Positions 33,164 to 64,000 of a stretch of 64,000 nt of DNA are shown one piece after another. The position numbers and the translations under genes were made by a program. The stretch's first letter is position 1; every line of letters begins with the position of its first letter. Origin of the DNA: a virus; IMG/VR virus record IMGVR_UViG_3300017967_005407, positions 1-64,000 of that record; one strand, given 5' to 3'. The notes beneath the pieces were generated by a model, which saw nothing but the letters and a program-made list of their open reading frames with translations, did no database searches and had not been told where the DNA came from.

Positions 33164-34066
33164 ATGGTTAACCAAATTATTTCAGCATATAGATATAATG
33201 TTTTATTTGAAGCAATTGAAAATATATTAGGTATTCCAAGTGGAGAAGGCATTGGCTATAATCAAAATGTTGAAAGTGAACGGCTTCCTAAAACTCGTAT
33301 AGTTTATGCAGAAGACATGAATAAACTATATAATGATTATGTAGCTGTGTATGCACATCAAAATGGAACTATACCTGCAACAATTAGCACTGTATCAGAT
33401 GAAAATGAGATAACAGAGTCTTTGTATTCTGCTTATGAAACACTTTATCCTCTATTGTTTACAAATAGATTTGATGCAGATGCATCGCAAATGGATTTAG
33501 GTGTTTCTGCAGGTATTGATAGTATTAGAACAAGCACATGGGGCGGCACAGGAACACCACAAAGTATCACACACGAATGGAGTGCTACATTTAGCAGTGG
33601 TAATAACCTAAATGGTTTTTTCAATGCAGGCGGCAGTTTTGAAATGTCTTTTTCAATGGGTTCGACTGGTAGTGATGATAAATCACAAGGCTGGGAAACT
33701 ATGTTAAACAACATAGGAAATGTTACAATTGATTATACAGGCACTACTGTTAGCGGTTCTGGTAGCCCAGCAAGCAACACTGGTATATACGATTTAACAA
33801 CTTCTTACGTAAAAATCTTTGAAAAACTAGGAACAGGAATTTATACTAATAACGATTTAGAAATATATGCCAGAAAAGACGGCAATGTAATTTATTTCAA
33901 AACTGTACTTGCTGACGAAAGCATTGGATCAGATCCAGGCGGAGTAGGGCCTATTGACGAAGTTGTTACTGGTAGAATTACTAGTTTTGTAAGACAAAAC
34001 AGACCAGTTGGTAGTTATGTAGAACTGCCTTCTCCATCATATCAAAATATCACTGTTTTCCAATAA
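33164..34066 (+). CDS. Putative virion structural protein (paralogue of 35062..36117)
   Basis: Follows the fibres; shares FF..GG...MS, W.TM..N.G, IY..N and PIDE.VTG with the 35062 ORF. Confidence 0.6.
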   Translation: MVNQIISAYRYNVLFEAIENILGIPSGEGIGYNQNVESERLPKTRIVYAEDMNKLYNDYVAVYAHQNGTIPATISTVSDENEITESLYSAYETLYPLLFTNRFDADASQMDLGVSAGIDSIRTSTWGGTGTPQSITHEWSATFSSGNNLNGFFNAGGSFEMSFSMGSTGSDDKSQGWETMLNNIGNVTIDYTGTTVSGSGSPASNTGIYDLTTSYVKIFEKLGTGIYTNNDLEIYARKDGNVIYFKTVLADESIGSDPGGVGPIDEVVTGRITSFVRQNRPVGSYVELPSPSYQNITVFQ

Positions 34067-34996
34067 TTTGCCTTTGTAATCTTTTATCTTTTTAGTTGTT
34101 AAATCTGTTAAACAACTGCAAAATTCATATTGGCATTTAACTGGAACATAAGGTATGTTAAAATTCATGTCGTGTATATTTCCTAAAATAAAATTAGGAA
34201 AACATTGACTACCTATAGTAACATTGCCTTGTCTTGTTATGTTTAATGTGTCTATACCAATCCAACAAGCCCAACCTTTAAATTTATTTTTCTTTTCCAG
34301 TAAAAGTTTTTGTAAGTCTATAATATTATTGTTTTCGTCTACCATTGTAACGCCATAGTTGTCTTTTTTGATACCTGGCAATTTTATTAATGATTGCATC
34401 TGTTTTATTTGTTTAGATGTATAAGGCATAGATTCTGCTTTGTCTAAACTTACACGTAAAGGTTTGTAATCTAATCTTATGTGTTTGTTCAAGTTTTTTA
34501 AACAGTAATCATATTGTTGTAGTGCTAAATCAAAATTTTCAATATCCATACATATTTGAAAATGTATATCAAAACTTCCAGCACATGCATTAAATTTGTC
34601 TACTAAATCTACAATATTAACCTGAGCAACATGAACACTTACAACTACACTATCTATATTGTTTTGATTTTTTTGCCACCAACGTTTTGTTTTATTACCG
34701 TTTGTTAGCAACTGTACTTTGTTTTTTGGACTGATGCTTTTTACATAGGAAAAAAACTCAGGAATTTCTCGCCATATAGTTGGCTCACCACCAAATAAAT
34801 TATACACAGCAAATTTATCTGTATAAGTTGCTGCTATTTTATCAACTAAAAGTTTTGCATTTTCTAATGTAGGAAAATTGTATTTTCCGTCGTGTGCTGC
34901 TGGTTCACAATAATGGCATGCGTAATTACATCTACTACTCATATCCCAATCAATGTAAACAAAATCTCTAGATTGTGCGTAATCAAATTGATCCAT
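34037..34996 (-). CDS. Radical SAM protein with C-terminal Cys-rich (twitch/SPASM-like) domain
   Basis: CNYACHYC, GGEPT and TNG motifs; C-terminal GWAC...C...CQYEFCSC. Start moved to ATG 34996, 4 nt after a minus-strand TAAATA. Confidence 0.88.
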   Translation of the reverse strand: MDQFDYAQSRDFVYIDWDMSSRCNYACHYCEPAAHDGKYNFPTLENAKLLVDKIAATYTDKFAVYNLFGGEPTIWREIPEFFSYVKSISPKNKVQLLTNGNKTKRWWQKNQNNIDSVVVSVHVAQVNIVDLVDKFNACAGSFDIHFQICMDIENFDLALQQYDYCLKNLNKHIRLDYKPLRVSLDKAESMPYTSKQIKQMQSLIKLPGIKKDNYGVTMVDENNNIIDLQKLLLEKKNKFKGWACWIGIDTLNITRQGNVTIGSQCFPNFILGNIHDMNFNIPYVPVKCQYEFCSCLTDLTTKKIKDYKGKLLENSDILI

Positions 34997-35000
34997 GCAG

Positions 35001-35041
35001 TATTTAACCGGTTGACAAAAACTAGGTAAATAAAGTATACT
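35001..35041. promoter_or_regulatory. Divergent promoter region
   Basis: TAAATA on minus (35001-35006), TAAATA on plus (35027-35032), and TTGACA-N18-TATACT on plus (35012-35041). Confidence 0.6.
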
Positions 35042-35061
35042 ATTAAGAAACTGGAGTGTAC

Positions 35062-36117
35062 ATGAGCGGTCAAGGTACAGCAATATTAGCTACTGACTTT
35101 AACAATATAAAAAGTATTTTAGAAAATAATTTTGGTATAGGTAATTATGGATTTAGCACCGGAACTGGTGCTAATGATATTCCTAATGATGTTGTAGGCG
35201 GTAGTGACCCAGCTACAAGTGATACTGTTTTGTCTGCTGATGTTGAAAGACTGTATAGCGTAGGACAACTAATACACTATCATCAAAATGGTGCAGTTAA
35301 AAGTTTATCAAGTGCCACGGGTTATGCAGATTTGCAAGTTGGAGAATTAATAGAATTTGCAGATTGGGGAGATGCTGCTAGTGTACAAGGGTTATATGAT
35401 CTTGCAAATTCTTGTGCTGCATTTAATAGGTATACTACAGAATTCAGCGGCGACTTTAGTGTTGCAAATAATAGATCGCTTCGTTTTTTGTCTGACTGGC
35501 AATCATTAAACATAATCTACATACATACATGGAACAGTGCAAACGAAATGACACACTTTTTCATGACCGGTGGAGAAGTTCGTATGAGTGTAGATATGAT
35601 TAATATAGGCACAGCGGGCGATGCTAGTTACGATAAAAACCTTAATTGGCAAACTATGATGAGTAATATGGGTACAGTCAGGTTATTCTTGCGTCCTAAT
35701 AGTGCCGGAACTGGCTACGAATGGGTTACTGAAAGTTTAAGCGGCGGTGGCACAGGAAGCATAATAGCTGATACTAACAATGCTGGACCTGCTAACAGTG
35801 GCAATGCGTATCTAGCTTATCAAAGAAACGGAGCCGGCTCAATTTATAATGACAATGAAATACGTATTACTGCAACCATATCTGCATCATCAGTGCGTTT
35901 AGAGCTTGATCTAATTGATGGAGATACAGGTACAGGTAATCCAGCAGATGGTCCATCTAGCACACCTATTGATGAACCTGTAACTGGAGATGTAAGAGCA
36001 AATAGTCAAATATCTTATGCAGATAGTACTATTACCTTAAATGATGGTACTGCTGATACAGACTTTACATTACTTGGACCTCAACCTACAACAACTACAG
36101 GTCTTTGGGCAACCTAA
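35062..36117 (+). CDS. Putative virion structural protein (paralogue of 33164..34066)
   Basis: GGAG SD before ATG 35062; S/T/G/D-rich; motifs shared with the 33164 ORF. Confidence 0.6.
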   Translation: MSGQGTAILATDFNNIKSILENNFGIGNYGFSTGTGANDIPNDVVGGSDPATSDTVLSADVERLYSVGQLIHYHQNGAVKSLSSATGYADLQVGELIEFADWGDAASVQGLYDLANSCAAFNRYTTEFSGDFSVANNRSLRFLSDWQSLNIIYIHTWNSANEMTHFFMTGGEVRMSVDMINIGTAGDASYDKNLNWQTMMSNMGTVRLFLRPNSAGTGYEWVTESLSGGGTGSIIADTNNAGPANSGNAYLAYQRNGAGSIYNDNEIRITATISASSVRLELDLIDGDTGTGNPADGPSSTPIDEPVTGDVRANSQISYADSTITLNDGTADTDFTLLGPQPTTTTGLWAT

Positions 36118-36129
36118 ATCATATATCCG

Positions 36130-36158
36130 TTGACAATCACTTAAAAATAATATATACT
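36130..36158 (+). promoter_or_regulatory. Sigma70-like promoter
   Basis: TTGACA-N17-TATACT. Confidence 0.75.
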
Positions 36159-36180
36159 GTAACCACAATTGGAGGTTTCT

Positions 36181-36528
36181 ATGGACGAGCGTCTTGAAAA
36201 AGCATTAGACATCAGTAACTACATGGTTACATTAAACAATCAAACACGTATTTTAAAAGAAAAGTATTACGAAAATCTTGTGTATTATTTCAATGGTGCT
36301 ACTTTTACTGTTACAAGAGAGTTAATTAACTTTATCAAAGGTTTAATAGATAGTGATCAGCAATCTGTAATTATAAGCGATGATAATGATATTCCTATTG
36401 AGATTGAAAACTTAGAAGAATTTCATCAAAATATTTTGAATACATATTTTACAGCATCAAATGAATACTTTGTTGAATACAACAAAATGAAAAGTAATAG
36501 AAACGTTGAAGGTATTTTAGATATATGA
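36181..36528 (+). CDS. Hypothetical protein
   Basis: GGAGG SD before ATG 36181; overlaps the next gene's start. Confidence 0.7.
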   Translation: MDERLEKALDISNYMVTLNNQTRILKEKYYENLVYYFNGATFTVTRELINFIKGLIDSDQQSVIISDDNDIPIEIENLEEFHQNILNTYFTASNEYFVEYNKMKSNRNVEGILDI

Positions 36529-37349
36529 GCAAAGGTGTTTTACTGTTTGCCAAAAGAAACAATGCATTAGATTATATTAAACAAGCTATATTTTGTGCTA
36601 AACGTGTAAAAAAATATTTAGACGTTCCAGTATCAATTGCTACTGATATGGTAGATGATGATAGACTTGATTTTTTTGATCATGTAATTAAATTACAGCC
36701 AAGCAATAATGATAACTCTAGAAAATTTAGAGATGGAAATCTTGCAACTAAGTTGGCAAACTTTAATAATGCAGATAGATATTTTGCATACGAATTAAGT
36801 CCTTATGACGAAACTATCGTAATGGATACAGATTACATACTTGCTAATGATAAACTTAAAAATTGTTTTGGTTCTAAACAAGATTTGATGATGTATAGCA
36901 GTGCTGTAGATTTATGTCATTGGCGTAATTTGACTGAATTTGATAGAGTAACTGATACAAGTATAAAGTTTTATTGGGCTACAGTTGTATATTTTAAAAA
37001 AACAGAAAAAACTAAATGCTTTTTTGATCTTGTGCAACACGTAAAAGAAAATTATACTCATTACAAAAGTTTGTATCAAATAATTAATCCGCTGTATAGA
37101 AATGATTTTGCCTTTAGTATTGCTGCTCATATACTAAATGGATTTACAGAAGATTTAACAATTGCAAGTTTACCAGGTAAAAAATACTTTACTACTGATA
37201 GAGATATATTGCAGAGTATTGACAATGATAAAATGATAATGTTGTTAGAAAAACAAAATCATGTTGGAGAATATACTGCAATAAAAACCAATAAACAAAG
37301 CATACATGTAATGAATAAAATTAGTTTAGAAAGAGTGATTGATGGATAA
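36525..37349 (+). CDS. Putative GT-A fold glycosyltransferase (GT8/nucleotide-diphospho-sugar transferase-like)
   Basis: SPYDETIVMDTD (DxD), FYWATVVYF, RNDFAFSIA and HVMNK motifs. Confidence 0.65.
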   Translation: MSKGVLLFAKRNNALDYIKQAIFCAKRVKKYLDVPVSIATDMVDDDRLDFFDHVIKLQPSNNDNSRKFRDGNLATKLANFNNADRYFAYELSPYDETIVMDTDYILANDKLKNCFGSKQDLMMYSSAVDLCHWRNLTEFDRVTDTSIKFYWATVVYFKKTEKTKCFFDLVQHVKENYTHYKSLYQIINPLYRNDFAFSIAAHILNGFTEDLTIASLPGKKYFTTDRDILQSIDNDKMIMLLEKQNHVGEYTAIKTNKQSIHVMNKISLERVIDG

Positions 37350-38181
37350 AAACTTTACTCTCCTAGCTCAAAATAGTGACCAAGATTACGTTAAGCAAGC
37401 GTGTTTATGTGCAATGAGTATACATGCTACAAATCCTGAAAGCAATGTTTCTTTAATTACTAATGACACTGTGCCTGAGAAGTATAAACAACTTTTTGAT
37501 CACATAGTAGAAATACCGTGGGGCGATCACGCAGCAGAAGAAGATTGGAAAATAAGTAATCGTTGGAAAATATATCATGCAACACCGTATGATAATACTA
37601 TGGTGCTTGACACTGATATGTTAATATTACAAAATTTAGATAGATGGTTTACTTATTTAGATAATTATGATCTATATTACACTAGCAATGTGTTAACATA
37701 TAGAGGAGAAACGGTAACAAGTGATTACTATAGAAAAGCATTTACACAATTTGACTTGCCTAATTTATATAGTGGAGTGCATTGGTTTAAAGAACGTCCT
37801 CTAGCAAAAGAATTTTATGCTTGGTTAGAAATGATTACTAATAATTGGCAATTGTTTTACAAACATCATGCAGGAGGCAAAACGTTTCAAAAAAAATGTA
37901 GTATGGATTTAAGTGCAGCTATCGCAGCAAAGATAATGAACTGCGAAAATCAAATCACAAGTAATACTAGTTTTCCAACTTTTGTTCATATGAAACCAAA
38001 GTTACAAAAATGGAATGCTTATGATAGTTTATCATGGCAATCACGTATTAGTGTTTACTTGAACGATGATTTAGATTTGTATGTTGGTAATTTTAAACAA
38101 AGTGGTATATTTCATTATACAGAAAAAGATTTTGCAAAAGACGAAATAATAAACACATACGAAAAGCACTTGGGGATATAA
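37342..38181 (+). CDS. Putative GT-A fold glycosyltransferase (paralogue of 36525)
   Basis: TPYDNTMVLDTD (DxD), NLYSGVHWF and FVHMK motifs. Confidence 0.65.
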   Translation: MDKNFTLLAQNSDQDYVKQACLCAMSIHATNPESNVSLITNDTVPEKYKQLFDHIVEIPWGDHAAEEDWKISNRWKIYHATPYDNTMVLDTDMLILQNLDRWFTYLDNYDLYYTSNVLTYRGETVTSDYYRKAFTQFDLPNLYSGVHWFKERPLAKEFYAWLEMITNNWQLFYKHHAGGKTFQKKCSMDLSAAIAAKIMNCENQITSNTSFPTFVHMKPKLQKWNAYDSLSWQSRISVYLNDDLDLYVGNFKQSGIFHYTEKDFAKDEIINTYEKHLGI

Positions 38182-38742
38182 ATGCCAATAGTAGTAAAAA
38201 GTAATACAAAAAAATATATTGAATTTGACGACGAAGGTAATATACAGGCTATAGTGAATACACCAAGCAGTGATCAATACATTCAAGTAGATAGCAAGGA
38301 TATAATAGATTTAATTAAAGGTATTGTACCTACACATCAATATCGAGTAGAGTTTGATATTGTAAAAAAAGATTATGTGTTGAATAAAACTGATTATTGG
38401 GAAGAAGCAAGAAGCTCTGATAGTTTTTTACATAAAATAGAATACAATGAAGATGCTGATGCTACATTAATCCAAAATAACATAAAAAAACAATGGGAAT
38501 TAAAATTAGGTAAAAAAGTTTTACAAAATATGGATAAAATAAATGTCAATATGAAAAACTTGATTACCGGATTTAGTATTACTGATAAAAATAATCCTTA
38601 TAATTTACATTATATTTTAAACTTTGAAACTGATAAATTTACAATTCCTTTTCCTGATAATTTTCAGTTTGACAAATCTCTAGTAAGTGTTTATACTGTA
38701 AGGAGATTAGAGTCTTATTCTCACGAGGTAATCAATGACTGA
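38182..38742 (+). CDS. Hypothetical protein
   Basis: Tightly packed ORF in the operon; no motif recognised. Confidence 0.65.
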   Translation: MPIVVKSNTKKYIEFDDEGNIQAIVNTPSSDQYIQVDSKDIIDLIKGIVPTHQYRVEFDIVKKDYVLNKTDYWEEARSSDSFLHKIEYNEDADATLIQNNIKKQWELKLGKKVLQNMDKINVNMKNLITGFSITDKNNPYNLHYILNFETDKFTIPFPDNFQFDKSLVSVYTVRRLESYSHEVIND

Positions 38743-39652
38743 TATTTTTAGAGTAGTTGATCATGACATAATTTATCTTAGTTATGATGAGCCCAATGCC
38801 GAACAAAACTATGCAGATTTGCTTACAAAAGTTCCTTGGGCTAAACGTGTACACGGTGTAAAAGGAAGTGATGCTGCACACAAAGCTGCTGCAAATGCAA
38901 GTGATACAGAAAGATTTATTACTATCGATGGTGATAATCGAATACGTGAAACTTTTTTAAGCCAAGAAGCAGATTTAAGTGAATATGACTTAACTGATAA
39001 AGTCATAAGTTGGACTGCTTATAATCAAATAAACGGACTTGCATATGGCAACGGCGGTATTAAGTGTTGGCCTAAACATAAAGTTTTAAGTATGAAAACG
39101 CATGAAAACGCAGATCCAGACAATGCACATGCACAAGTAGATTTTTGTTGGGACTTGCAATATATTCAAATGAATGGAACATTCAGTGACATTTACAATA
39201 ATGCAACACCTCAACAAGCATGGAGAGCAGGATTCCGTGAAGGTGTTAAAATGGCACTAGATCAAGGTATAAAACCAGATATTGAAGATTTTAAACGCAA
39301 TCATTGGAAAAATTTGCATAGACTTTGGATATGGTTAATGGTAGGTGCAGATGCTGATAACGGACGTTGGGCAATTTATGGAGCAAGAGAAGGTTTGTAC
39401 AAAACTATGTGTACAGATTGGAACTTTATCAACGTGCGTGATTTTGAATGGTTAAACGATTATTGGAATAATATCGAGGTTAATGAAGAAACATTAGAAG
39501 ATGAAACTCAAAGACTCGGTGATGAACTTATGAATGAATTACAGGCTCCAATTGCATTACAGCCGTTAGATGCAAATCAAAGTAAGTTTTTTAAAACAGT
39601 GTATCAAAATCCTGTACGTAATCCTAAGTTTATCGATAAGGAACTTGGATGA
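38735..39652 (+). CDS. Putative GT-A (GT2-like) glycosyltransferase
   Basis: SYDEPNA..NY, RVHGVKG..AAH, IDGD (DxD), YGNGGIK and AWRAGFREGVK; paralogue of 43039. Confidence 0.6.
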   Translation: MTDIFRVVDHDIIYLSYDEPNAEQNYADLLTKVPWAKRVHGVKGSDAAHKAAANASDTERFITIDGDNRIRETFLSQEADLSEYDLTDKVISWTAYNQINGLAYGNGGIKCWPKHKVLSMKTHENADPDNAHAQVDFCWDLQYIQMNGTFSDIYNNATPQQAWRAGFREGVKMALDQGIKPDIEDFKRNHWKNLHRLWIWLMVGADADNGRWAIYGAREGLYKTMCTDWNFINVRDFEWLNDYWNNIEVNEETLEDETQRLGDELMNELQAPIALQPLDANQSKFFKTVYQNPVRNPKFIDKELG

Positions 39653-41022
39653 GCGAAAGAGACGAAGCAGTTCGTATAACAAAATACACAGACGAACAGA
39701 TTTCTCCTACATTTTGTTTTGCTAAATGGTATCATGCAAACATTTATTTTCAGACAGGTGAAACACACAGTTGTTATCATCCTGCTCCTCATACAATTGA
39801 TACACAAGCTATTTTAAAAAATCCTAGTGCTATTCATAATACAAAACAAAAAATTGAAGAACGTGCTGCAATGTTGCGTGGTGAACAACCTAAAGGCTGT
39901 CAATACTGTTGGAACATTGAGAATATGGGTCCTGATTATATCAGCGATCGTAAAACCCGTAGCAGTAGTATTTACAACGAGGAAAGATTAAATGCTGTAA
40001 AACAAGGTGGCGCAGAATTTAATGTTAATCCGGAATATTTAGAAGTTAGCTTTGGTAATGAATGTAACTTCCGTTGTGGTTATTGTCATCCAAAAGCCAG
40101 CAGCAGATACTATCAAGAAATTAAGCAACACGGTCCATATGATATGGTGCGCAATCACCGATGTGATGTTGATTGGTTTAAAATTTATGAAGAAGACAAT
40201 AATCCGTACCTAGATGCATTTTGGAAATGGTGGCCTGATTTAAGCAACGACTTAACTATTTTACGCATCACAGGTGGAGAACCAACAATACAAAAGAGCA
40301 CATATAAACTTTTTGATTTGTTGGAGCAGGATCCAAAGCCTCATTTAGAATTGAATGTTAACAGTAATTTAGGAGGCAAACCAAAGCAATTAGAAAAATT
40401 TACCGATGCAGTAAATAGTTTGCTTAGTCAAAATAAAATTCGTAGATTCAAACTGTTTACAAGTATTGACACTTGGGGTAAACGTGCTGAGTACATACGT
40501 AACGGATTAGATATTGATGTATTTGAGCGTAATTTAGATTATTTTATGCGTAATACAAATGCACCTGTAACTATAATGATTACATTTAATATTTTCAGTG
40601 TTACAACTTTTCAAACATTACTTGAAAAAATATTAGAATGGCGCCGAAAGTATAATGATGTTGAAACATTTCGGTGGAATCGTTTAAGTTTTGATACACC
40701 TTATCTAAAAGAACCATTACAATACGATATTAATATTTTGCCTCAGGAATATATGAAGTATATGCACAGTCATTTACAGTTTATAAAAGACAACTTAGAT
40801 GATGAACGTAAAGATGCATTTACTACAATGGAATATGAACGTTTTAGGCGTGTAGTTGATTACATGGATTCAACACAGTATGATCCTGCAAAAGTTATGC
40901 AAGGTCGTATTGACTTTTGGCGTTTTTTCAATGAGCAAGATAAAAGAAGAAATACAAATTTTAAAGAAGCATTTCCTGAAATGGCTGACTTTTTTGAAAC
41001 TTGTAAAGATACTGCTAGTTAA
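39649..41022 (+). CDS. Radical SAM protein with N-terminal twitch-like Cys domain
   Basis: FC.AKW...SCYH...GCQYCW, then CNFRCGYC, GGEPT and C-terminal QDKRR...FPE. Confidence 0.9.
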   Translation: MSERDEAVRITKYTDEQISPTFCFAKWYHANIYFQTGETHSCYHPAPHTIDTQAILKNPSAIHNTKQKIEERAAMLRGEQPKGCQYCWNIENMGPDYISDRKTRSSSIYNEERLNAVKQGGAEFNVNPEYLEVSFGNECNFRCGYCHPKASSRYYQEIKQHGPYDMVRNHRCDVDWFKIYEEDNNPYLDAFWKWWPDLSNDLTILRITGGEPTIQKSTYKLFDLLEQDPKPHLELNVNSNLGGKPKQLEKFTDAVNSLLSQNKIRRFKLFTSIDTWGKRAEYIRNGLDIDVFERNLDYFMRNTNAPVTIMITFNIFSVTTFQTLLEKILEWRRKYNDVETFRWNRLSFDTPYLKEPLQYDINILPQEYMKYMHSHLQFIKDNLDDERKDAFTTMEYERFRRVVDYMDSTQYDPAKVMQGRIDFWRFFNEQDKRRNTNFKEAFPEMADFFETCKDTAS

Positions 41023-55130: not shown

Positions 55131-56472
55131 TTTTTGTATATATCCTTGGATACACATGCAACTCAAACCAAACGGACAAGCAAAACCTTGTTGTAGATTT
55201 GACCATATGAACGCAGCATATAGAGACGAAAAAGGCAATCCTACAATGTCTCAGTATAATGTAAAAGAAAAATCATTTAAAGAAATTATGGAAAGTGATT
55301 TTTGGAACGAATTACGCACAGATATGCTCAAAGGAAACACTATACCAGGATGCTACAAGTGCGACAGAGAAGATGCTGGCGATAAATTTAGTATGCGATT
55401 TAATGCTAATAATGCATGGAATGAACAAAACGAATTTCGTCCAATAGATGTTAATCAAGAACTAAGTTTTAAATACTTAGAATTAACAACTGGTAGATAC
55501 TGCAATCTAGCTTGTAGAATGTGTAGTAGTGATTTAAGTACAACTTGGGATGCTGATGATAAAGTTTTAGCAGAAAAATATGAAGATAGATTTGATTTTA
55601 GTAAGCGTCCGCAAATATTAAACTTAAATTTTACTGCTGATGATTTCAAAGAAACGCAATTAATTAAAATGACAGGTGGCGAACCTATGATTGTTCCTAC
55701 CTTTATACCATTTATAGATAAAGTAATAGAAAGCGGATACACAGATAATATAATGCTGCAAATTTATACAAATTGTAGTTGGGTGCCAAAAGCAAAAATT
55801 ATTGATAGGTTAAAAAAGTTTGGATTAGTACAAATATATTTGAGCGTGGACGGATTAGATGAAGTTAATGATTACATAAGATATCCTAGTAAATGGTCAA
55901 CAGTTGAAGAAAGTGCAAAAAAGTGGTTAAGTATTGCTAAAGATCACAGTAATTTTGATATAGTGTTTTCTCCAACTATTAGTTTGTACAATATACTTCA
56001 ACTTCCGAAAATGTGGAATTGGTGGGAAAATTTACAAGAAGAAATATACGGAGAAAAGTTTATCGTTGACAATAACTTGTATTCAAAATATACTAGAAAA
56101 AATAAACACGGAACTGACGTAAGTTACATATACGAAATTGCAAGATTTAGTCCTACTATGTTACAAACTCCGTCCTATTTAAGTAGCACTATGTTACCGC
56201 AAAAAGAAAAAGTGATTGAACAATTAGATGAAATAATTAAAAAACATTCTAAACGTGTAGAAAATTTAGATGAATATGAAATATTTGTACGGTTTAGATA
56301 TATGATAAAACATATTATTAGTAGCTTCAATAAAAATACAAATACTAGTTTACAAGATTTTGTTGAGTATAGTGCAGATTTAGATAAACTTAGAAATCAA
56401 AAGTTGCAAGATTCATTGCCAGAGTTATGGGAACAAATTAAAACAAGTGTTGAATATAAAGGAAAACTATGA
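55111..56472 (+). CDS. Radical SAM protein with N-terminal twitch-like domain
   Basis: FCIYPW...PCC...CYKC; CNLACRMC; TGGEP. Confidence 0.92.
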   Translation: MTVVKNSFCIYPWIHMQLKPNGQAKPCCRFDHMNAAYRDEKGNPTMSQYNVKEKSFKEIMESDFWNELRTDMLKGNTIPGCYKCDREDAGDKFSMRFNANNAWNEQNEFRPIDVNQELSFKYLELTTGRYCNLACRMCSSDLSTTWDADDKVLAEKYEDRFDFSKRPQILNLNFTADDFKETQLIKMTGGEPMIVPTFIPFIDKVIESGYTDNIMLQIYTNCSWVPKAKIIDRLKKFGLVQIYLSVDGLDEVNDYIRYPSKWSTVEESAKKWLSIAKDHSNFDIVFSPTISLYNILQLPKMWNWWENLQEEIYGEKFIVDNNLYSKYTRKNKHGTDVSYIYEIARFSPTMLQTPSYLSSTMLPQKEKVIEQLDEIIKKHSKRVENLDEYEIFVRFRYMIKHIISSFNKNTNTSLQDFVEYSADLDKLRNQKLQDSLPELWEQIKTSVEYKGKL

Positions 56473-57716
56473 GTAAAACATTTTGTCCTATGCCATTTAC
56501 TCATTTGAATATTAAACAAGAAGGCAAAGTTAGTGCCTGTTGGCGTTTTCCTGATAAATTAGGCGATTATAGAACTCAAACATTACAAGAAATTTGGAAC
56601 GATGACGCATTGCAAAAACTAAGACACGACAGTTTAAATGATGTGCAAAATATTGGATGTAGAAGCTGTTGGGATATGGAGAAAAGTGAAAGTATTAGCA
56701 CACGTATGCAGTGCAGTCAAACTTTTCCTTATGTCAACCAACCGTTTGTAGAAGAACATATTCAAGAAGATTATAGCTTTCCAACAAAATATATACGCAG
56801 TGTTGAAATACGTTTCGATAATATTTGCAATTTAATGTGTAGGCATTGTAGTCCTGATTATAGTAGTGTTTGGGAACAAGCAGTCAAGCGTGATCCTACA
56901 CTAATGGACAAGATGCAAGAATATGGAACTTATAGAAAAGATGTTAACCATGTAAGTCTTACACAAGAAATGGTAGACGAAATAGCAAATGAGCTGGCAC
57001 CTAACTTAGAAGAAATAATGATTGCCGGCGGCGAACCATTGTATCATGACAAGCACTACAAATTTCTTGAAGACATGCAACCATATGCAAGTAACATACG
57101 CTTGAGTTACAACACTAACCTAAACATATTAGAATACAAAGGTAAAAGTGTGTTAGACTTGTGGAAAAATTTCAAAGAAATTTGGTTGCGTATTAGTATA
57201 GATGGCGATCCTAGTTGTTATGAATATGTACGTGCAGCAGGTAATCTACACAAAGTTGAAGAAAACATAAAAAAACTAAACGAAACACTAATTAATACAG
57301 ATATAAGTGCTACTTGTACTGTGAGTTTGTACAACATAACAAGATTTACTAACATTGTAAAATATTTTTGCGGATTAGATGTTTATTTTCACACAAGTTT
57401 GGTGCAATATCCAGAAGCTCTAAACATAAAATTGCTTCCACAAGAATTAAAAGATTCTATTACACAAGAATTTTGGCATTGGTATGAAAATGAAGCTGAA
57501 GATTATGTTAAAAGTGTTAGTAAAAAAGTAAAAGTACAAAAACAACTAGACAGAATTAAAAAATTTGCTACAAATACACTCAATTACATGAACAGCGAAG
57601 ATAGACATGACAAATGGCATTTGTTTTTAGATTACAGTGCCGCTTTAGATAGCTATCACGGCACTGATTTGTTCGAGAGTTACTCCGAATATTCTTCAAA
57701 ATTAAATAAATCGTAA
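56469..57716 (+). CDS. Radical SAM protein with N-terminal twitch-like domain
   Basis: FCPMPF...ACW...CRSC; CNLMCRHC; AGGEP. Confidence 0.92.
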   Translation: MSKTFCPMPFTHLNIKQEGKVSACWRFPDKLGDYRTQTLQEIWNDDALQKLRHDSLNDVQNIGCRSCWDMEKSESISTRMQCSQTFPYVNQPFVEEHIQEDYSFPTKYIRSVEIRFDNICNLMCRHCSPDYSSVWEQAVKRDPTLMDKMQEYGTYRKDVNHVSLTQEMVDEIANELAPNLEEIMIAGGEPLYHDKHYKFLEDMQPYASNIRLSYNTNLNILEYKGKSVLDLWKNFKEIWLRISIDGDPSCYEYVRAAGNLHKVEENIKKLNETLINTDISATCTVSLYNITRFTNIVKYFCGLDVYFHTSLVQYPEALNIKLLPQELKDSITQEFWHWYENEAEDYVKSVSKKVKVQKQLDRIKKFATNTLNYMNSEDRHDKWHLFLDYSAALDSYHGTDLFESYSEYSSKLNKS

Positions 57717-58969
57717 TCTTTTTGCAAATCATCTAATATATCATTATATTTTTTGAACTTTTGTAAATCGCTTGCTGGAACTTTGATATCACAATATAAG
57801 TTTGAGTTTATTTTTGCAACACGTTTAATATGACTTGCTGTAAGTGTGTTTATTTGTTGTAATCCAAACTGTAATGCATTGCTTCTAAACCCTGGAATGT
57901 CACCAATTGCATGATATATACCAGTAATATTGAATTTTTCTAATTCGTTAATAATTGCAGCATCATCAAACAACATATTTGCAAGTGCATATGAATGATT
58001 TTTTGTTTTGTATATTTGCCATGCATCGTATATAGCATCTTTGCTACCAAATTCTTGTAACAGCACATTCCATTGTTTCTCTATAATGTTATCTGAGCTA
58101 TTATTCCAAAAATCAAAATCTCCATCACCTGCGTCATTGCACAAAGAAAGAGTTTTAACTAATCCTTTTTTTGTACCATCCCAATTTTTTGTAATTAGCT
58201 TTTTCCAAAGTAGATTTCGATCAAAAATATCAAAGTGTAAATAGTTTTCTACATTGTCTATATACTTACTACCTAGTATAAATGCTTTAAACATGCTACA
58301 AGGGCCTACAACAGTGTTTATAGCGCCCTGTACGGTACTCAAATGTGTTTTATCAGTGCATATAGCTTCTGTATTATAAAGAAAAAACACCCCTTTATCC
58401 TGATCATTTGCGTGCCTTGGATTACGTGTTGTAAGAAGTTTAATAAACAAATCAGTAAGGTTTGTATTAATAATAGGAAGTTTAGTAAAATGATTTAACT
58501 CGTCATTCCATGCCTGTGGATTTTGTGTTGCTTTAGAATCTAATAACTGTTTAATTATTACGTTATTGATTTTTTTACTATCTGATTTTATGTAATCAGC
58601 AATCTTGGGTTTTCCTTTTTGTCGCCAATGTTTTAAATTTATTATCTGTATAGTTGGAGATTTTTTGTCGTGTATTACACTCCACTCTGTTTTATGACTT
58701 TCTATATCATATATACACATTTTATGAATATGCCAAAAATCGTGATGATACATTCCAAACCAAGTCACAATTAGATATTCAGTTTTTTTGTCAGCAATTA
58801 TATCTAATATGTCATCTACTGATTCTGCCCATACAAATGGATGCTGCTCAACACTTTGTTTTACATAATGTCCACGTTGATAATACAACATCCAGCTTTG
58901 ATAAAGGTCTCGATCAATATTGTTTTTTATATTTTTAGGTACAACAACGGCATGTTGTATATTAAGCAT
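57680..58969 (-). CDS. Hypothetical enzyme (paralogue of 48617..49981)
   Basis: Start set at ATG 58969, overlapping the end of the upstream gene; FFLYNTE and NWDG blocks. Confidence 0.6.
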   Translation of the reverse strand: MLNIQHAVVVPKNIKNNIDRDLYQSWMLYYQRGHYVKQSVEQHPFVWAESVDDILDIIADKKTEYLIVTWFGMYHHDFWHIHKMCIYDIESHKTEWSVIHDKKSPTIQIINLKHWRQKGKPKIADYIKSDSKKINNVIIKQLLDSKATQNPQAWNDELNHFTKLPIINTNLTDLFIKLLTTRNPRHANDQDKGVFFLYNTEAICTDKTHLSTVQGAINTVVGPCSMFKAFILGSKYIDNVENYLHFDIFDRNLLWKKLITKNWDGTKKGLVKTLSLCNDAGDGDFDFWNNSSDNIIEKQWNVLLQEFGSKDAIYDAWQIYKTKNHSYALANMLFDDAAIINELEKFNITGIYHAIGDIPGFRSNALQFGLQQINTLTASHIKRVAKINSNLYCDIKVPASDLQKFKKYNDILDDLQKDYDLFNFEEYSE

Positions 58970-59696
58970 AAATTTTTCTCCAGTGATGGTAACTTTCTTC
59001 AATACGTTTGTTCCAACCGTCACCTAACCTGCCGTGTGCAATAATATGATATCTATCCTCATTGCTCCAATTATATACACAATGTATATTATAGAGATTT
59101 AACTTGATAATACGTCCTTGTTCCCAAGGCAAATAGCCTATTTCGTCCATGTAGAAATGGCATTCTTCTGGATTGTTTAATGCTATATTAGTAGGACCGA
59201 TATGATTTTCGTCTAGTGTAATACTATCTCTATGTGGAATAATCCAGCCTCCTGGAGATAATTTCATAATACGTATTCTGTCATACTGTTTGTAATCAAA
59301 TCTGTTTTCAAAAAAATCTCTAATAGTAGGACACCAGTCTGCTACGTCGGTCCACCTGTATGGTGCGTCTTTTCTGTCATTGTATCCGTAAGTATGATGA
59401 GATTCTGTGTGTACACTACTCAAGCCATGGATGCACAAACTACTCCAACCGCTGTGACTTTCATGATGTCTATGAGGAACATAGTGTTTTTCTAATCTTT
59501 TAGCTTCCCAAAGCATTTTCTCCCAATCAGCATCTTCAAAACCTGTAATAGGTAAAAAGTCTAGTTGATCACTCATGTGTATTTCACGAGATGTTTTTAA
59601 GTTTTGTGGATATTTTGGTTTAGCTGGAAATTTATTACGTTCTGCAAATATCTCTGGCGGTTCGTTGCTTACTCCCCATTCTGTAATTGTATACAT
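58962..59696 (-). CDS. Aspartyl/asparaginyl beta-hydroxylase-family 2OG-Fe(II) oxygenase
   Basis: WSSLCIHG, RIRIMKLSPGGWIIPHRD (HxD) and HCVYN...RYHII. Confidence 0.8.
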   Translation of the reverse strand: MYTITEWGVSNEPPEIFAERNKFPAKPKYPQNLKTSREIHMSDQLDFLPITGFEDADWEKMLWEAKRLEKHYVPHRHHESHSGWSSLCIHGLSSVHTESHHTYGYNDRKDAPYRWTDVADWCPTIRDFFENRFDYKQYDRIRIMKLSPGGWIIPHRDSITLDENHIGPTNIALNNPEECHFYMDEIGYLPWEQGRIIKLNLYNIHCVYNWSNEDRYHIIAHGRLGDGWNKRIEESYHHWRKIYA

Positions 59697-59759: not shown

Positions 59760-60743
59760 ATGAGCCTTGTTGCATATCATAAATTACACAAAAAAATAGA
59801 TGACTTATCCGAATGGGGAATGTTTTTTAGAAAAGTAAACTTTCCAAAAAGAACAACAGACAATTGTAGATGTAAAAGAGATTTGAAATATATTTTGTGG
59901 GGCATAGCTAGATGTATTTTGCATCAAGATCCAAAATTAATTAACGAGATTTCTCATAAATTTGTAAAAAATAAAAAACTTGTCCTAACTGATCATAGAG
60001 TAGAATTAGCTGTTTATGCTTATATAGAAGGTGAGTTATACAAACTACTTAAACACCATAGAGATGATGTTGAAATTATGATAGAAGCAATGCAGTTGCT
60101 AAAAGATAATTTTAAAAAACTAGAAGAAGCAAACTACACTAGAGAATTTAGTGATTTGATTAAAGAAAGAAAAACTACATTTACATGGTTAGATAAAAAA
60201 GTTACGCAAGAAACAGTTGAAGATATATTGTTAGACTTACACATGTACGCACCTAGTAAACAAAATAGAATGCCTTACTATCTTGATGTTTTAGATTGGA
60301 AGGACCCTGAGTTGAGACATAATATTTTTGAATGGTGCTGGAGAGACCTTAAACATGATGCACAAACAGATAAAGGAAATCCTCAAACATTAGCACCTTA
60401 TCTATTTTGTTTTACTCCACGGATATCTAATAATCCTGACGATAATGCTTTGGAAGAAGCAATGATTGAAATAGGTATAGCCAGTAGCTTTATTATTTGG
60501 AATGCACAAAGTAGAGGATTAAGTACAGGTTATTGTGCATGTATTCAAGATCCTACAATGATAAGTAATGCATTAGGACGTCCGAATAATCAGGTTAAAT
60601 TGTTATTAGGTATGGGCTACAAAGATGAGAACGCTAACAGTTATTTTGATCCAAGAATACAGGCCGATAAATTGCTACCAAGTGATAATTCATTCCATAA
60701 ATCTAATCAGGAAAATATAGGATCTTATATCGTATGGCATTAA
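59760..60743 (+). CDS. Nitroreductase-family flavoprotein with N-terminal extension
   Basis: LIKERKT, APSKQNRMPY, EIGIA......AQSRGLSTGY and LLLGMGY motifs. Confidence 0.75.
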   Translation: MSLVAYHKLHKKIDDLSEWGMFFRKVNFPKRTTDNCRCKRDLKYILWGIARCILHQDPKLINEISHKFVKNKKLVLTDHRVELAVYAYIEGELYKLLKHHRDDVEIMIEAMQLLKDNFKKLEEANYTREFSDLIKERKTTFTWLDKKVTQETVEDILLDLHMYAPSKQNRMPYYLDVLDWKDPELRHNIFEWCWRDLKHDAQTDKGNPQTLAPYLFCFTPRISNNPDDNALEEAMIEIGIASSFIIWNAQSRGLSTGYCACIQDPTMISNALGRPNNQVKLLLGMGYKDENANSYFDPRIQADKLLPSDNSFHKSNQENIGSYIVWH

Positions 60744-61900
60744 CAAAAACATTGTGCAGTGCAGCATGGTATGATATAAATGTTGACTTTGGAGCAAAAA
60801 CATTAAGCCATTGTTGTAAAAGTCAACGTGAATCTTTTCCTGAGGTTGTTACAGAAGACTTTTTTAACAATAGTTTACACATACAAAAATTACGTGATGA
60901 TTTAGTAAATGGTATAGAAAATCCTGCATGTAATTTTTGTTGGAATAGTTATAAAGAAACTGGAACTGCATACAGAGATTTTAAAAACAAATGGATAGAT
61001 AATTCTAGTGTTAACTACAATGTAAATAATATAGAAATTACACTTGATAATATTTGTGATATGGCATGTATATATTGTGATGCTACTAGTAGCAGTAGGA
61101 TTGCACAAGAATTAGGACATGAGCATGTTATGAATATTCCTAATGATGCTCATATGCAAACTTTCATAAATTGGTTTGAGCATGTAGCATTAAAACAAAA
61201 GTTTATACCTTTGAGTTTTTTAGGTGGCGAAATTAGTTACAGTAAAAACTTTTATAAATTTATGAATATGATTTTGCAAAAAAAGTCTATTTACAATAGC
61301 AGAATAAATTTTAGTGTATTAACCAATGGCAATGCAACTGAAAAAAATCAAAAAAAACTTTTAGCATTATTTGATAGTTTGCCTGAAAAATGGGGAATTA
61401 GTTTAGGCATCAGTAACGAATCTACTGGAGTTGTTGCTGAGTCAGTAAGATATGGACTGAATTGGAATCGTTTTCAAAACAACTTCATTGATTATATTAA
61501 TCATCCTAGATTGGTAAATGTAACACTTGCTCCTACTCCTAATATTTTTACTGTAAAGCATATGTATGAGTATTTTGATTGGGTCATAAACGAATTGCGG
61601 AAAACAGATACCAAACTTGCAATTTTTGGAAATTGGGTAAACTGGCCAAACGAACTAGATCCAAGTAAATTAGATGATGCATATAAGATACATGTGGATA
61701 AATGCTTGCAATTAATCAAAACAAATAAAGATTTATTTTTAGATGCGGGACAATATAATCATACGTACAAATGGTTAGAACAATTAAAAGCACGTATAGG
61801 TACACAACAGCAAAATGATGTTGAATTAGATAATTGGATACGTAAAACTGCAATACAAAAGAAAGATAACAGTCTTTTGAATTTAAGAGAGTATATATGA
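60734..61900 (+). CDS. Radical SAM protein with N-terminal twitch-like domain
   Basis: LCSAAW...HCC...CNFCW; CDMACIYC; LGGE. Confidence 0.88.
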   Translation: MALTKTLCSAAWYDINVDFGAKTLSHCCKSQRESFPEVVTEDFFNNSLHIQKLRDDLVNGIENPACNFCWNSYKETGTAYRDFKNKWIDNSSVNYNVNNIEITLDNICDMACIYCDATSSSRIAQELGHEHVMNIPNDAHMQTFINWFEHVALKQKFIPLSFLGGEISYSKNFYKFMNMILQKKSIYNSRINFSVLTNGNATEKNQKKLLALFDSLPEKWGISLGISNESTGVVAESVRYGLNWNRFQNNFIDYINHPRLVNVTLAPTPNIFTVKHMYEYFDWVINELRKTDTKLAIFGNWVNWPNELDPSKLDDAYKIHVDKCLQLIKTNKDLFLDAGQYNHTYKWLEQLKARIGTQQQNDVELDNWIRKTAIQKKDNSLLNLREYI

Positions 61901-63162
61901 CAAAGGAATGGAAAAACCCAGATTGGTTCCCTGCAAAAGGCAATAGAGCGTGTTTGCTTAAATGGAGTCAAGTTACATTAAGTTTATGGGATAACACTAG
62001 TAGTAGTTGTCACAGAAATGGAATGCATCAAATAGGTGAGGATTTTGATTTTCATAATGAACCAAAATGGGTAGAACATAGAGAAAAAATGTTAAATGGC
62101 GATTGGCCTAGTGATGGATGGGGTTGCGAACATTGTCGAGATCAAGAAGCTATAGGCGGAACTAGCGATAGGATGCAATGGCTTAGTAATAACAATAACA
62201 AAAGATATGTTCCAAAAGAACTTTTTAATAATCCAACTGCCACTCGTATAAAACCTACACAAGTAAGTATGCATTTTAATAATAAATGTAATTTAAAGTG
62301 TGTTTATTGTGGGCCTCAGTATAGCAGTGCTTGGGTGAAAGAAATGCAAAAATATGAACCTAAACATAGTTTTATACAAGATGTAGATATAAAAGAAAAA
62401 ACGTACGAACAAAGACTGGAAAAATTCTACAAATGGATGGAAAACAATTATAGCAGTCTTAAAGCGTTTGATTTATTAGGCGGTGAACCTTTTATACAAC
62501 AAGAAACATGGGACTGTGTTGATTGGATGATAAAGCATCCTAATCCGGAATGTGATATAGAAATATACAGCAATATGGAAGTAAAACCTAAACTTTTTAA
62601 AAGAGGATGCGAAAAATTAAAAGAACTTAGCAAAACAGTCAAAGAAGTTGTATTTGTAATTAGTGTAGATACTTTTGGACCAGAAAGTGAGTATATAAGA
62701 TTTCCACATAATTGGGAAGTTATGGAAGATAATATAAATTATTTAATTTATGAATGCCCAGAAATTATTCCAACTATGAATTGGACTGTTACTAATCTTA
62801 GTCTAAAAACTACTCCGGCATTAGTCCGTAAAGTTATTGAATGGAATAAACATCGGTATGTAAGTGTAAATTATAATAGATGTCACGATCCACATTTTTT
62901 TGATCCAAAAATTATGCCAGAAGGGTTTTACGATGATGTAATTGATGAACTAAAAGAATTAAATCAAATAATGTATCAAGGAAACAACAGTCCATATATG
63001 GATTATGTAAACACTATTTTCAAAGAAATAAACGAAACACCTGCAGATTACGAAGCTATAAAAATGCTTAAATGGCGCCTAACAGAACTTGATAAACGTA
63101 GAGGCACAAATTGGCAAGAAACATTTCCTTGGTTAACAACTGTTGGACATAATAGAATTTGA
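61897..63162 (+). CDS. Radical SAM protein with N-terminal twitch-like domain
   Basis: ACLLKW...SCH...CEHC; CNLKCVYC; LGGEP; C-terminal LDKRRGTNW..FP. Confidence 0.9.
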   Translation: MTKEWKNPDWFPAKGNRACLLKWSQVTLSLWDNTSSSCHRNGMHQIGEDFDFHNEPKWVEHREKMLNGDWPSDGWGCEHCRDQEAIGGTSDRMQWLSNNNNKRYVPKELFNNPTATRIKPTQVSMHFNNKCNLKCVYCGPQYSSAWVKEMQKYEPKHSFIQDVDIKEKTYEQRLEKFYKWMENNYSSLKAFDLLGGEPFIQQETWDCVDWMIKHPNPECDIEIYSNMEVKPKLFKRGCEKLKELSKTVKEVVFVISVDTFGPESEYIRFPHNWEVMEDNINYLIYECPEIIPTMNWTVTNLSLKTTPALVRKVIEWNKHRYVSVNYNRCHDPHFFDPKIMPEGFYDDVIDELKELNQIMYQGNNSPYMDYVNTIFKEINETPADYEAIKMLKWRLTELDKRRGTNWQETFPWLTTVGHNRI

Positions 63163-63192
63163 TTGACAAAATAATTAAAGATAGTATACTAT
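63163..63192 (+). promoter_or_regulatory. Sigma70-like promoter with leaderless geometry
   Basis: TTGACA-N16-TATACT-N6-ATG(63197); no SD. Confidence 0.65.
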
Positions 63193-63196
63193 AGAT

Positions 63197-64000
63197 ATGA
63201 CTGAAGATTTAAAATGGTCTAATTATGACTTTACTAAAATACCTTTTAATGACATTATCCAAGTGGGACAACGAACGCTCCTCTACCGAGATATCTTTAC
63301 GGTATCTTGGTTACTAGGAAGATTTTGTAACTATAGGTGTAGTTACTGTTGGCCTTATGCAAGAAGTGACAGAAAAGATCATAGACCAACTGAGTTGTGT
63401 CTAGCAACTATAGATGAGATAAAGAAGCAAGCACGTGATAACGGTTTTAACAGTTTCCATTTTAGTCTGTCTGGCGGCGAGCCTACCTTTCATCCAGGGT
63501 ACTTGGACATACTTGGTCACTTGGCTAATGATGTGCCTAATACTAATTATACTTCCATACATATGACATCAAACTGCTCACGCCCAATGAAGTGGTTTGA
63601 AGATTATGTAGAAAAAGCAAAACCTTTCCATAGAGCAAGTATAACGGCTAGTTTGCACACAGAACACTTAAATACAAAGGAGAAGATGCAGGACTTTGCA
63701 GATAAATTAATCCTGTGTCAAGAACACGATGTACAAGTTACAATTAATATGGTCATGGTTCCGGAATGGTTTGAAAGAGATTGGGAAAACGCCCTCTTCT
63801 TCCACGAGCAAGGAATCAACGTTACACTTAAACCCCAATCGGATCCGACTGCGTCAAAAGTGGTTGATGGATACACTGGGGATATGCTTAAAAGACTCTG
63901 GAACGGAATGCCACAAAGAGCCTACACAGAAACAAAACGCAAGTGGGAAGGTAGACCCAAACCAAACTTCAAAATTCCTGTAGGTATTATGGGCAAACCT
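63197..64000 (+). CDS. Radical SAM protein (runs off window end), same type as 34037..34996
   Basis: Not in the ORF track; hand translation gives MTEDLKWSNYDFTKIPF...SWLLGRFCNYRCSYCW...SGGEPT...TSN. Confidence 0.88.
   Translation, partial: MTEDLKWSNYDFTKIPFNDIIQVGQRTLLYRDIFTVSWLLGRFCNYRCSYCWPYARSDRKDHRPTELCLATIDEIKKQARDNGFNSFHFSLSGGEPTFHPGYLDILGHLANDVPNTNYTSIHMTSNCSRPMKWFEDYVEKAKPFHRASITASLHTEHLNTKEKMQDFADKLILCQEHDVQVTINMVMVPEWFERDWENALFFHEQGINVTLKPQSDPTASKVVDGYTGDMLKRLWNGMPQRAYTETKRKWEGRPKPNFKIPVGIMGKP

Follow-up and report, generated by a model that had tools for sequence, protein, structure and literature searches.

A fibre-linked island of fourteen radical SAM genes in an uncultured jumbo phage, a candidate pathway for building and tailoring a glycan

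The island and its genes

The DNA under study is IMG/VR virus record IMGVR_UViG_3300017967_005407, a viral contig of 76,597 bp with a GC content near 32%, whose first 64 kb (positions 1 to 64,000) are called the window. About 33 kb of the contig is taken up by an island in which radical S-adenosylmethionine (SAM) genes stand together with glycosyltransferase-like genes and other enzyme genes. A widespread jumbo-phage lineage has a conserved fibre-linked module, and of the forms seen in this analysis the island is the most expanded. A first-pass annotation made from the letters alone had described 13 radical SAM open reading frames (ORFs) in the window, and had stated that the island directly follows and interleaves with tail-fibre genes and continues past the window. 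All of this was borne out. The motif CxxxCxxC occurs in exactly those 13 window ORFs, each of which matches PF04055; the genes at 33164, 35056, 41643 (minus strand) and 67482 (minus strand) are fibre-like; and the gene at 63197 ends at 64330, a 14th radical SAM gene lies at 65101-66234, and the right end of the island is at contig position 67464, before a minus-strand Mtd_N fibre gene.

The features are given here in contig coordinates, and genes are called by their first coordinate in the text. Bit scores are those on NF033640 (N_Twi_rSAM), and RsoM2USA is a cultured Ralstonia jumbo phage.

1-34 kb: left part outside the island, with SbcCD-like nuclease genes, a gp55-type late sigma factor, baseplate hub and wedge genes, a 4,528-residue ORF and three tail-fibre genes
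27764-29761, 29761-31593 and 31629-33143, plus strand: the three tail-fibre genes, which have a common N-terminal domain and PHROG tail/tail-fibre matches and form the left border of the island
33164-34066, plus: fibre-like protein, paralogue of 35056 (27% identity), with a lysine plus arginine fraction of 0.05 and a serine plus threonine fraction of 0.20
34037-35083, minus: group C radical SAM protein, CNYACHYC at residue 52, PF04055 E 4e-10, paralogue of 63197
35056-36117, plus: fibre-like protein by paralogy to 33164 and by composition
36118-36168, plus: predicted sigma-70-type promoter TTGACA-N17-TATACT heading the core operon
36169-36528, plus: p119, a small acidic protein, first gene of the core operon, kept in relatives, 36% identity to RsoM2USA
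36525-37349 and 37339-38181, plus: two GT8-like paralogues, by family profile against glycogenin, 37-40% identity to RsoM2USA ORF353/352
38182-38742, plus: p186, a conserved protein kept in relatives
38735-39652, plus: GT-A-fold glycosyltransferase-like protein, paralogue of 43039 (31% identity), invariant D-G-D, 44% identity to RsoM2USA ORF350
39649-41022, plus: core N_Twi radical SAM protein (NF033640, 318 bits), 36% identity to RsoM2USA ORF349, model with a predicted local distance difference test (pLDDT) score of 92
41019-41621, minus: p200, a conserved protein
41643-42968, minus: tail-fibre-like gene, PHROG tail-fibre C-terminus E 2.6e-5, fibre-like composition, ATAAATA 18 nt upstream
43039-44070, plus: GT-A-fold glycosyltransferase-like protein with an extra N-terminal domain, model pLDDT 89, sigma-70-type promoter
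44057-44944, plus: methyltransferase-fold-like protein by motifs in the family alignment, following the GT-A gene in RsoM2USA too
44941-45165 and 45162-45515, plus: two small ORFs of 74 and 117 residues, ATGA-coupled to their neighbours, without Cys and without a family
45503-46600 (a conserved anchor), 46597-47322 with twitch piece 47315-47605, and 47605-48627, plus: group B radical SAM proteins by Cys motifs and paralogy
48581-49981, plus: p466, enzyme-like by composition, a virus-only family that matches only unnamed virus-only clusters in the atlas
50009-51409 (a conserved anchor) and 51402-52715, plus: two N_Twi radical SAM proteins, 427 and 372 bits, with an N-terminal SPASM match
52712-53269, plus: short protein (185 residues) like short-chain dehydrogenases/reductases (SDR), invariant S88, Y101 and K105, PDB SDR profile E 1e-3
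53254-54090, plus: HxD...H protein, candidate Fe(II) oxygenase, paralogue of 64266, invariant H115, D117 and H254
54003-55130 (true start perhaps near 54090), plus: group B radical SAM protein by Cys motif and paralogy
55111-56472 and 56469-57716, plus: N_Twi radical SAM proteins by NF033640 and paralogy
57680-59023, minus: p447, enzyme-like by composition, no known family
58962-59696, minus: Fe(II)/2-oxoglutarate (Fe/2OG) oxygenase of the Asp/Asn beta-hydroxylase family, PF05118 E 1.3e-8
59760-60743, plus: nitroreductase-family flavoprotein with an N-terminal extension, PF00881 E 2e-7
60734-61900 (159 bits) and 61897-63162 (248 bits), plus: N_Twi-type radical SAM proteins by NF033640 and paralogy
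63197-64330 (window part to 64000), plus: group C radical SAM protein behind a sigma-70-type promoter
64266-65129, 66227-66796 and 66814-67464, plus, beyond the window: HxD...H protein by its motif, then Asp_Arg_Hydrox protein and nitroreductase by family matches
65101-66234, plus, beyond the window: 14th radical SAM protein, N_Twi-type, 145 bits
67482-68963, minus, beyond the window: fibre gene with an Mtd_N domain and fibre-like composition

All 14 radical SAM proteins carry CX3CX2C and match PF04055 with E between 1e-3 and 3e-15, and the gathering score of that family is exceeded by 11 of the 13 in the window and by 12 of the 14 overall. The core protein 39649 lies just under it, yet has the high NF033640 score given above, and a scan of the contig with NF033640 returned 14 radical SAM places and nothing else. 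Paralogy sorts the proteins into three old groups. Eight genes (39649, 50009, 51402, 55111, 56469, 60734, 61897 and 65101) make up group A; their products are 18-35% identical, and six of these (39649, 50009, 51402, 55111, 56469 and 61897) match NF033640 over its full length at 248-427 bits, where the curated cut-off is 170 bits. The remaining two, 60734 and 65101, score under the cut-off and so are relatives of the family and not certified members. Across 31 sequences, group A shows an N-terminal auxiliary motif of four Cys, then CX3CX2C, then GGE, all invariant or nearly so; within the auxiliary motif C23, C84 and C87 are invariant and C42 is nearly so, and in three members Pfam SPASM matches residues 6-94.

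Group B has four genes (45503, 46597, 47605 and 54003), in which the radical SAM motif is N-terminal and the C-terminal Cys pattern (C, CC, CxxxC) is twitch-like. One of them, 46597, has a truncated core of 241 residues, and the next ORF (47315, 96 residues) overlaps it by 8 nt. Because that ORF has exactly the Cys spacing of the paralogues' C-termini, 46597 is a split or frameshifted gene, the pair being either a two-piece enzyme or the result of a frameshift. Group C, of another type, consists of 34037 (minus strand) and 63197. The first-pass annotation had allowed that these genes might belong to housekeeping families, and that doubt falls, since they score only 15-45 bits on the NrdG, QueE, MoaA and viperin models, against equivalog cut-offs of 126-284.

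The structure model of the core protein was compared with known structures. Among the matches were SkfB (Z 13.0), BlsE (12.9), MoaA (12.0), viperin (12.0), anSME (11.8), SuiB (11.8), DesII (11.1) and AprD4 (7.5), and the peptide maturases CteB and ChlB are also among the top structural neighbours.

The four DxD glycosyltransferase-like genes of the first-pass annotation are supported, two as GT8-like genes, by profile and DxD, and two as genes of GT-A fold, by Foldseek and D-G-D. The GT8-like family profile matches glycogenin-1 and -2 with E of about 1e-3 over 100 residues, with D101-x-D103 invariant, while the single sequences give no Pfam or NCBIfam match. In Foldseek, the model of 43039 matches RmlT, K4CP (chondroitin polymerase), WrtF, SunS and ppGalNAcT with probability 1.0 and E 1e-5, and D174-G-D176 is invariant. 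The extra domains keep its TM-scores low, at 0.27-0.34. The same model matches many viral GT-A proteins in BFVD, including the Che8 glycosyltransferase.

The other enzyme calls of the first-pass annotation fared unevenly. The nitroreductase-like call for 59760 stands on its PF00881 match; in NCBIfam it finds nothing beyond a weak match to malonic semialdehyde reductase, and the nitroreductases match no SagB-type model. Of the two proposed oxygenases, 58962 (minus strand) is an Asp_Arg_Hydrox protein, whereas 53254 shows the invariant HxD...H motif, as does its paralogue 64266, but neither belongs to a family that was matched, and 53254 has no Pfam or PDB profile match. The SDR call for 52712 keeps its S-Y-K motif, but the profile match is weak and the glycine motif degenerate. 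The methyltransferase call for 44057 is similar: methyltransferase-like motifs are present, but database support is weak, consisting of an atlas score of 0.95 to a viral cluster with 21% Methyltransf_31 and Spermine_synth at E 0.008-0.03. The possible GNAT, presumably 41019 (minus strand), was not upheld by any Pfam (E up to 5) or PDB profile match. Pfam at E up to 5 also gave nothing for 48581, 57680 (minus strand), 33164, 35056 and 45162, and PDB profile searches gave nothing for the families of 43039, 44057, 41019 and 53254. PHROG likewise returned no family for 33164.

The island is gene-dense, and its one sizeable gap is taken up by the 74-residue ORF, whose ATGA overlaps with both neighbours suggest translational coupling. 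No small ORF of the island is Cys-rich or of leader type, no small precursor of RiPP type (ribosomally synthesised and post-translationally modified peptide, as in sactipeptide and ranthipeptide systems), having a leader plus a core that is Cys-rich or repetitive, was found next to it, and a six-frame scan of the whole 76.6-kb contig found no Cys-His repeats or Cys-rich small proteins. The first core gene product, p119, has no Pfam match and no core-peptide-like conservation. In none of the island ORFs does the hydrophobicity of a 19-residue segment exceed 1.6, the membrane-helix threshold, and no transporter or exporter family is among the family matches of the island proteins.

The two minus-strand fibre genes, 41643 and 67482, are otherwise unrelated, and have in common a C-terminal stretch of about 37 residues at 46% identity.

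Conservation, phage lineage and promoters

Conservation was evaluated in two sets of IMG/VR loci. The radical SAM gene at 50009 served as the anchor of the first: it has 382 relatives, of which the best 80, at 82-93% identity, were kept, and homologues were counted at 50% identity or more. Each of these 80 loci spans about 21 kb, with a median of 8 and a maximum of 14 radical SAM genes. Homologues of 45503 occur in 76 of them, of 43039 in 62, of 52712 in 37 and of 63197 in 31; most other genes are found in fewer than 10. This suggests conserved anchors with swappable cassettes between them.

Relatives reach far beyond these close loci. The GT-A protein 43039 has at least 584 viral relatives on IMG/VR contigs, and the core radical SAM protein relates to 5,883 protein clusters. 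A second set was made of 37 more diverse loci, each of at least 15 kb and carrying a relative of the GT-A protein; 35 of them have an N_Twi radical SAM gene, 28 a GT8 gene, 25 p119 and 24 a fibre-like gene. Gene order follows a fixed pattern: after three or four fibre genes come p119, GT8, GT8, p186, GT-A, in some cases a radical SAM gene, GT-A, in some cases a methyltransferase-like gene, then the radical SAM array and a conserved minus-strand block. Among the viral loci the array behind the core comprises 2 to 14 genes and is accompanied by Fe/2OG-type oxygenases, an SDR-like gene and nitroreductase-like genes.

The core is also found in RsoM2USA, in the same order and at 36-45% identity, right after a gene whose product carries the N-terminal domain common to the fibres. 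Its core genes are all annotated as hypothetical; the paper on this phage does not discuss them, and its virion mass spectrometry covers the major bands only, for identification (PMC8504454). The same fibre genes precede the module in the relatives and in RsoM2USA. Synteny with tail modules in related phages, which the first-pass annotation had proposed to check, is kept in hundreds of viral contigs and in this cultured phage, and so the objection that the linkage to tail genes might not be conserved falls away. Because the core eight-gene module is present in a cultured phage, the question of its product is directly testable.

The phage is, by the company its proteins keep, an uncultured jumbo phage of the salt marsh. 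Its gp6-like baseplate wedge is nearest to those of the jumbo phages Salicola SCTP-2, Agrobacterium Atu_ph07 and Pseudomonas PA5oct (34-37% identity), CheckV puts the completeness of the contig at 15%, and close protein relatives sit on contigs of 271-278 kb. For these reasons an assignment to the T4-size pelagimyophages, first suggested by the T4-like genes and by PMC7029224, was rejected. Matching DNA was found in salt-marsh metagenomes. In four salt-marsh RNA runs, portions of the fibre and enzyme genes are matched by contigs at 99% identity or more; as these are contig-level matches that may include DNA, they show neither timing nor level of transcription.

Two other features of the contig may be mentioned here. 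The single 4,528-residue ORF at 13543-27129 lies between the baseplate wedge and fibre genes, and its giant counterpart in RsoM2USA, ORF361, was detected in virions by mass spectrometry (PMC8504454). Beyond the island, at contig 70503-72990 on the minus strand, a DUF2201 metallopeptidase/VWA-like gene stands beside a MoxR-type AAA ATPase, behind a sigma-70-type promoter.

Two classes of putative promoter were found. Sigma-70-type sites (TTGACA-N16-18-TAnnnT) lie directly upstream of 35056, 36169, 38735, 43039 and 63197, and also upstream of the early-type genes for gp55, the DUF2201 protein and a 5'-3' exonuclease. A late-type motif, [A/C]TAAATA, lies 17-42 nt upstream of the structural genes 2934, 10100, 27159 and 31629 (the last with ATAAATA), and likewise upstream of 41643 (minus strand), 67482 (minus strand), 58962 (minus strand), 59760 and 66814. 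This is predicted to be the working late motif of the phage. The canonical T4 late promoter, TATAAATA, was tried as the late signal and rejected: where 14.9 sites would be expected the window has a single one, and it does not lie at the start of a gene.

In relatives, sigma-70-type sites are again seen at operon leaders, and internal genes almost never have them; the late motif is found ahead of 60-66% of fibre homologues (60% for homologues of 41643). For closer relatives (p119 57-61% identical), 19 distinct regions upstream of the core operon have a sigma-70-type site at its leader; 21 regions of more distant relatives (p119 43-48% identical) have a late-type ATAAATA there, and no region has both types. 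The pattern of predicted promoters points to real regulation, and in part of the lineage to co-expression with the fibres. With the leader type differing between sub-lineages, promoter class argues neither way between virion and host targets.

What the island may make

We are led to suspect that the island encodes a cytoplasmic pathway in which a glycan is built and then modified through radical chemistry, with the virion fibres as the probable site, and we give this reading a probability of about 45%. Working in the cytoplasm, the four transferases would draw on the host's nucleotide sugars to assemble a short glycan, which the methyltransferase-like protein would cap. The radical SAM proteins, with their SAM-cleaving cluster and one auxiliary four-Cys cluster, would abstract hydrogen from sugar C-H bonds and so epimerise, oxidise, deoxygenate or cross-link residues, with redox partners completing the chemistry. 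Swapping of radical SAM cassettes between phages would diversify the product, and the acceptor would most likely be a virion protein of the adjacent fibre set. All island proteins are predicted to be soluble, about half of the distinct relatives have a late-type promoter on the core operon, and no peptide substrate was seen among the small ORFs.

Cellular homologues of the core radical SAM protein give a second view of its partners. Full-length homologues at 35-38% identity occur in Bacteriovoracaceae, Bdellovibrio, Oligoflexia, a gammaproteobacterium and a contig binned as Flavobacteriaceae. On a 1.8-Mb Bacteriovorax contig (locus L086, positions 5415-16210) the order is an M16 peptidase, a radical SAM/SPASM gene, the N_Twi gene, a 774-residue GT4, one more gene and an ABC-2 exporter on the opposite strand; a second member of the Bacteriovoracaceae (L089) has identical ORF sizes and order. 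In the gammaproteobacterium a carbamoyltransferase adjoins the N_Twi homologue, and the Flavobacteriaceae-binned contig, which could itself be viral, has a GT2-like gene and two GT7-plus-lectin genes followed by two N_Twi genes. N_Twi genes therefore stand beside unrelated transferase families in independent contexts (GT8 with GT-A, GT4, and GT2/GT7), which is the best available evidence for a role in glycoconjugates. The Bacteriovoracaceae cluster is also a possible cellular model for N_Twi function.

The first-pass annotation had likewise proposed a pathway that builds and tailors a glycan, most simply on the virion. Its tail linkage, its non-housekeeping radical SAM enzymes and the transferase neighbourhoods stand, but the action of these enzymes on sugars is putative, and the fold matches all substrate classes equally well. 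For the virion as target the fibre-linked position holds, and position is the one thing that points there.

Several observations weigh against the glycan reading. The N_Twi fold is equally near to peptide-acting, nucleotide-acting (viperin, MoaA) and sugar-acting enzymes (BlsE, AprD4, DesII), and so does not appear, on the model, to decide between sugar, nucleotide and peptide substrates. Sugar chemistry has been demonstrated for no N_Twi member, and no paper on NF033640 or on N-terminal-twitch radical SAM enzymes was found. The GT8 and methyltransferase calls are weak, and the island contains no nucleotide-sugar synthesis genes. Enzymes of the Asp/Asn hydroxylase family usually act on proteins or lipid A. 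The enzyme operons here lie behind early-like sigma-70-type promoters and the interleaved fibre genes behind late-type ones, an arrangement that would fit a host- or DNA-directed role too. Finally, the M16 peptidase and radical SAM/SPASM gene in the Bacteriovorax neighbourhood are RiPP-like and keep a peptide reading alive.

The alternative that survives best, although we consider it unlikely, is that the island remodels the host envelope. From the cytoplasmic face its soluble enzymes would modify either lipid A or the host's lipid-linked polysaccharide, be it O-antigen or capsule of the ABC-transporter type, and a host exporter would carry the altered glycan out, for example blocking superinfection or the adsorption of progeny to debris. 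The early-like promoters from which this phage's enzyme operons start agree with such a role, as do the GT4 and ABC-2 exporter beside the Bacteriovorax homologue, which are typical of surface polysaccharide loci. Peripheral transferases of these pathways need no membrane helix, and LpxO, which hydroxylates lipid A, belongs to PF05118. A similar idea has been proposed for the glycosyltransferases in the pelagimyophage host recognition cluster (PMC7029224). However, neither an initiating transferase nor a membrane exporter, the mark of Wzx/Wzy or ABC-transporter loci, was found in the island, nor a flippase, a polymerase or any membrane protein, and half of the relatives use a late-type promoter for the core operon. 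The module also keeps the same place behind fibre genes across very different hosts, from salt marsh to Ralstonia, which is hard to square with reliance on the glycan pathway of one host.

It is rather less probable that the island matures protein or peptide side chains in a RiPP-like way, with the radical SAM enzymes, hydroxylases and flavoproteins modifying the fibres or p119 and p186 by epimerisation, cross-links or hydroxylation, and glycosylation being one further step. The tight partners of the core radical SAM gene are four transferases and not a protease or a leader-binding protein, and the 76.6-kb contig holds no Cys-His-repeat or Cys-rich small protein that could be a substrate. The sole extra small ORF lacks Cys, p119 lacks core-peptide-like conservation, and the nitroreductases lack a SagB-type match. 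What speaks for maturation is that SkfB, anSME, SuiB, CteB and ChlB, all peptide maturases, are among the top structural neighbours, that two genes of the Asp/Asn beta-hydroxylase family are present, and that the M16 peptidase and radical SAM/SPASM gene adjoin the Bacteriovorax homologue.

A diffusible small molecule made during infection, such as an aminoglycoside-like or nucleoside-sugar compound, is improbable. The mix of transferases, twitch radical SAM enzymes, SDR, methyltransferase-like protein and oxygenases does resemble aminoglycoside and nucleoside antibiotic clusters, and BlsE, AprD4 and DesII are among the structural neighbours, but no aminotransferase, cyclitol synthase, resistance or export genes are among the island's family matches and its position is fixed inside the fibre module.

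Hypermodification of phage DNA, with transferases and radical enzymes decorating bases against restriction, is very improbable: early-type promoters head the operons and DNA glycosylation is well known in T-even phages, but within the 76.6 kb available neither the island nor its flanks show a gene for a base-hydroxymethylase, a kinase, DpdA or a TGT-type enzyme, DNA transferases are not known from GT8 or from this GT-A family, the island is fibre-linked, and relatives use late promoters.

Returning to the glycan on the fibres, a bolder form of this reading can be put forward, though we hold it with considerable doubt: the whole of this abundant jumbo-phage lineage may use permuted N-terminal-twitch radical SAM enzymes to edit, in place, an assembled glycan on the receptor-binding fibres, with cassette shuffling (2-14 per genome) diversifying the fibre surface. 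If so, epimerising, oxidising or cross-linking in place would give rare sugars without a nucleotide-sugar pathway, which would be new enzymology and a new mode of variation in phage host range or immune evasion. A radically edited fibre glycan would also mean that host recognition by phages has a further layer, and it would open up another source of radical chemistry for modifying sugars. The phage devotes about 33 kb to 14 radical SAM enzymes, costly and oxygen-sensitive as these are, and related phages are common in environmental data.

Comparison with known systems

The only paper found that mentions such genes does so in passing and on another phage lineage. In pelagimyophages, the host recognition cluster is a large hypervariable island behind a giant VrlC-type gene, with tail fibres, GT8-type glycosyltransferases, an Asp/Asn beta-hydroxylase and "cassettes related to radical SAM proteins" to which no function is given; the core module is not described there (Zaragoza-Solas et al., mSystems 2020, PMC7029224). 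Pelagimyophages are a different lineage of T4 size, whereas the island phage is, by its baseplate gene, nearest to SCTP-2, Atu_ph07 and PA5oct.

At the family level the closest match is NF033640, whose full model, with the N-terminal four-Cys motif, CX3CX2C and GGE, is matched by six island ORFs. It is a subfamily defined by sequence, for which no characterised member was found, and it is represented here by an array of eight paralogues. The sugar- and nucleoside-acting enzymes BtrN, AprD4, DesII, BlsE and HygY have in common with N_Twi proteins a partial TIM-barrel radical SAM core and one auxiliary-cluster domain. In N_Twi proteins that domain is N-terminal, and looks like a permutation relative to the twitch/SPASM enzymes acting on sugars and nucleosides. 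The likeness to the sugar enzymes is no greater than that to SkfB, anSME, SuiB, viperin and MoaA, and BtrN is absent among the matches listed for the core protein's model.

The virion glycosylation systems of chlorovirus PBCV-1 and of Che8-type mycobacteriophages differ in having no radical SAM enzymes, and no relationship to the island, which is known from its genes alone, was seen at the level of sequence. The likeness is in the soluble, cytoplasmic, virus-encoded transferases of GT-A type that stand beside structural genes. In chlorovirus capsid glycosylation, PBCV-1 A064R joins two transferase domains and a methyltransferase domain, and the island has a similar succession, with a GT-A gene followed by a methyltransferase-like gene.

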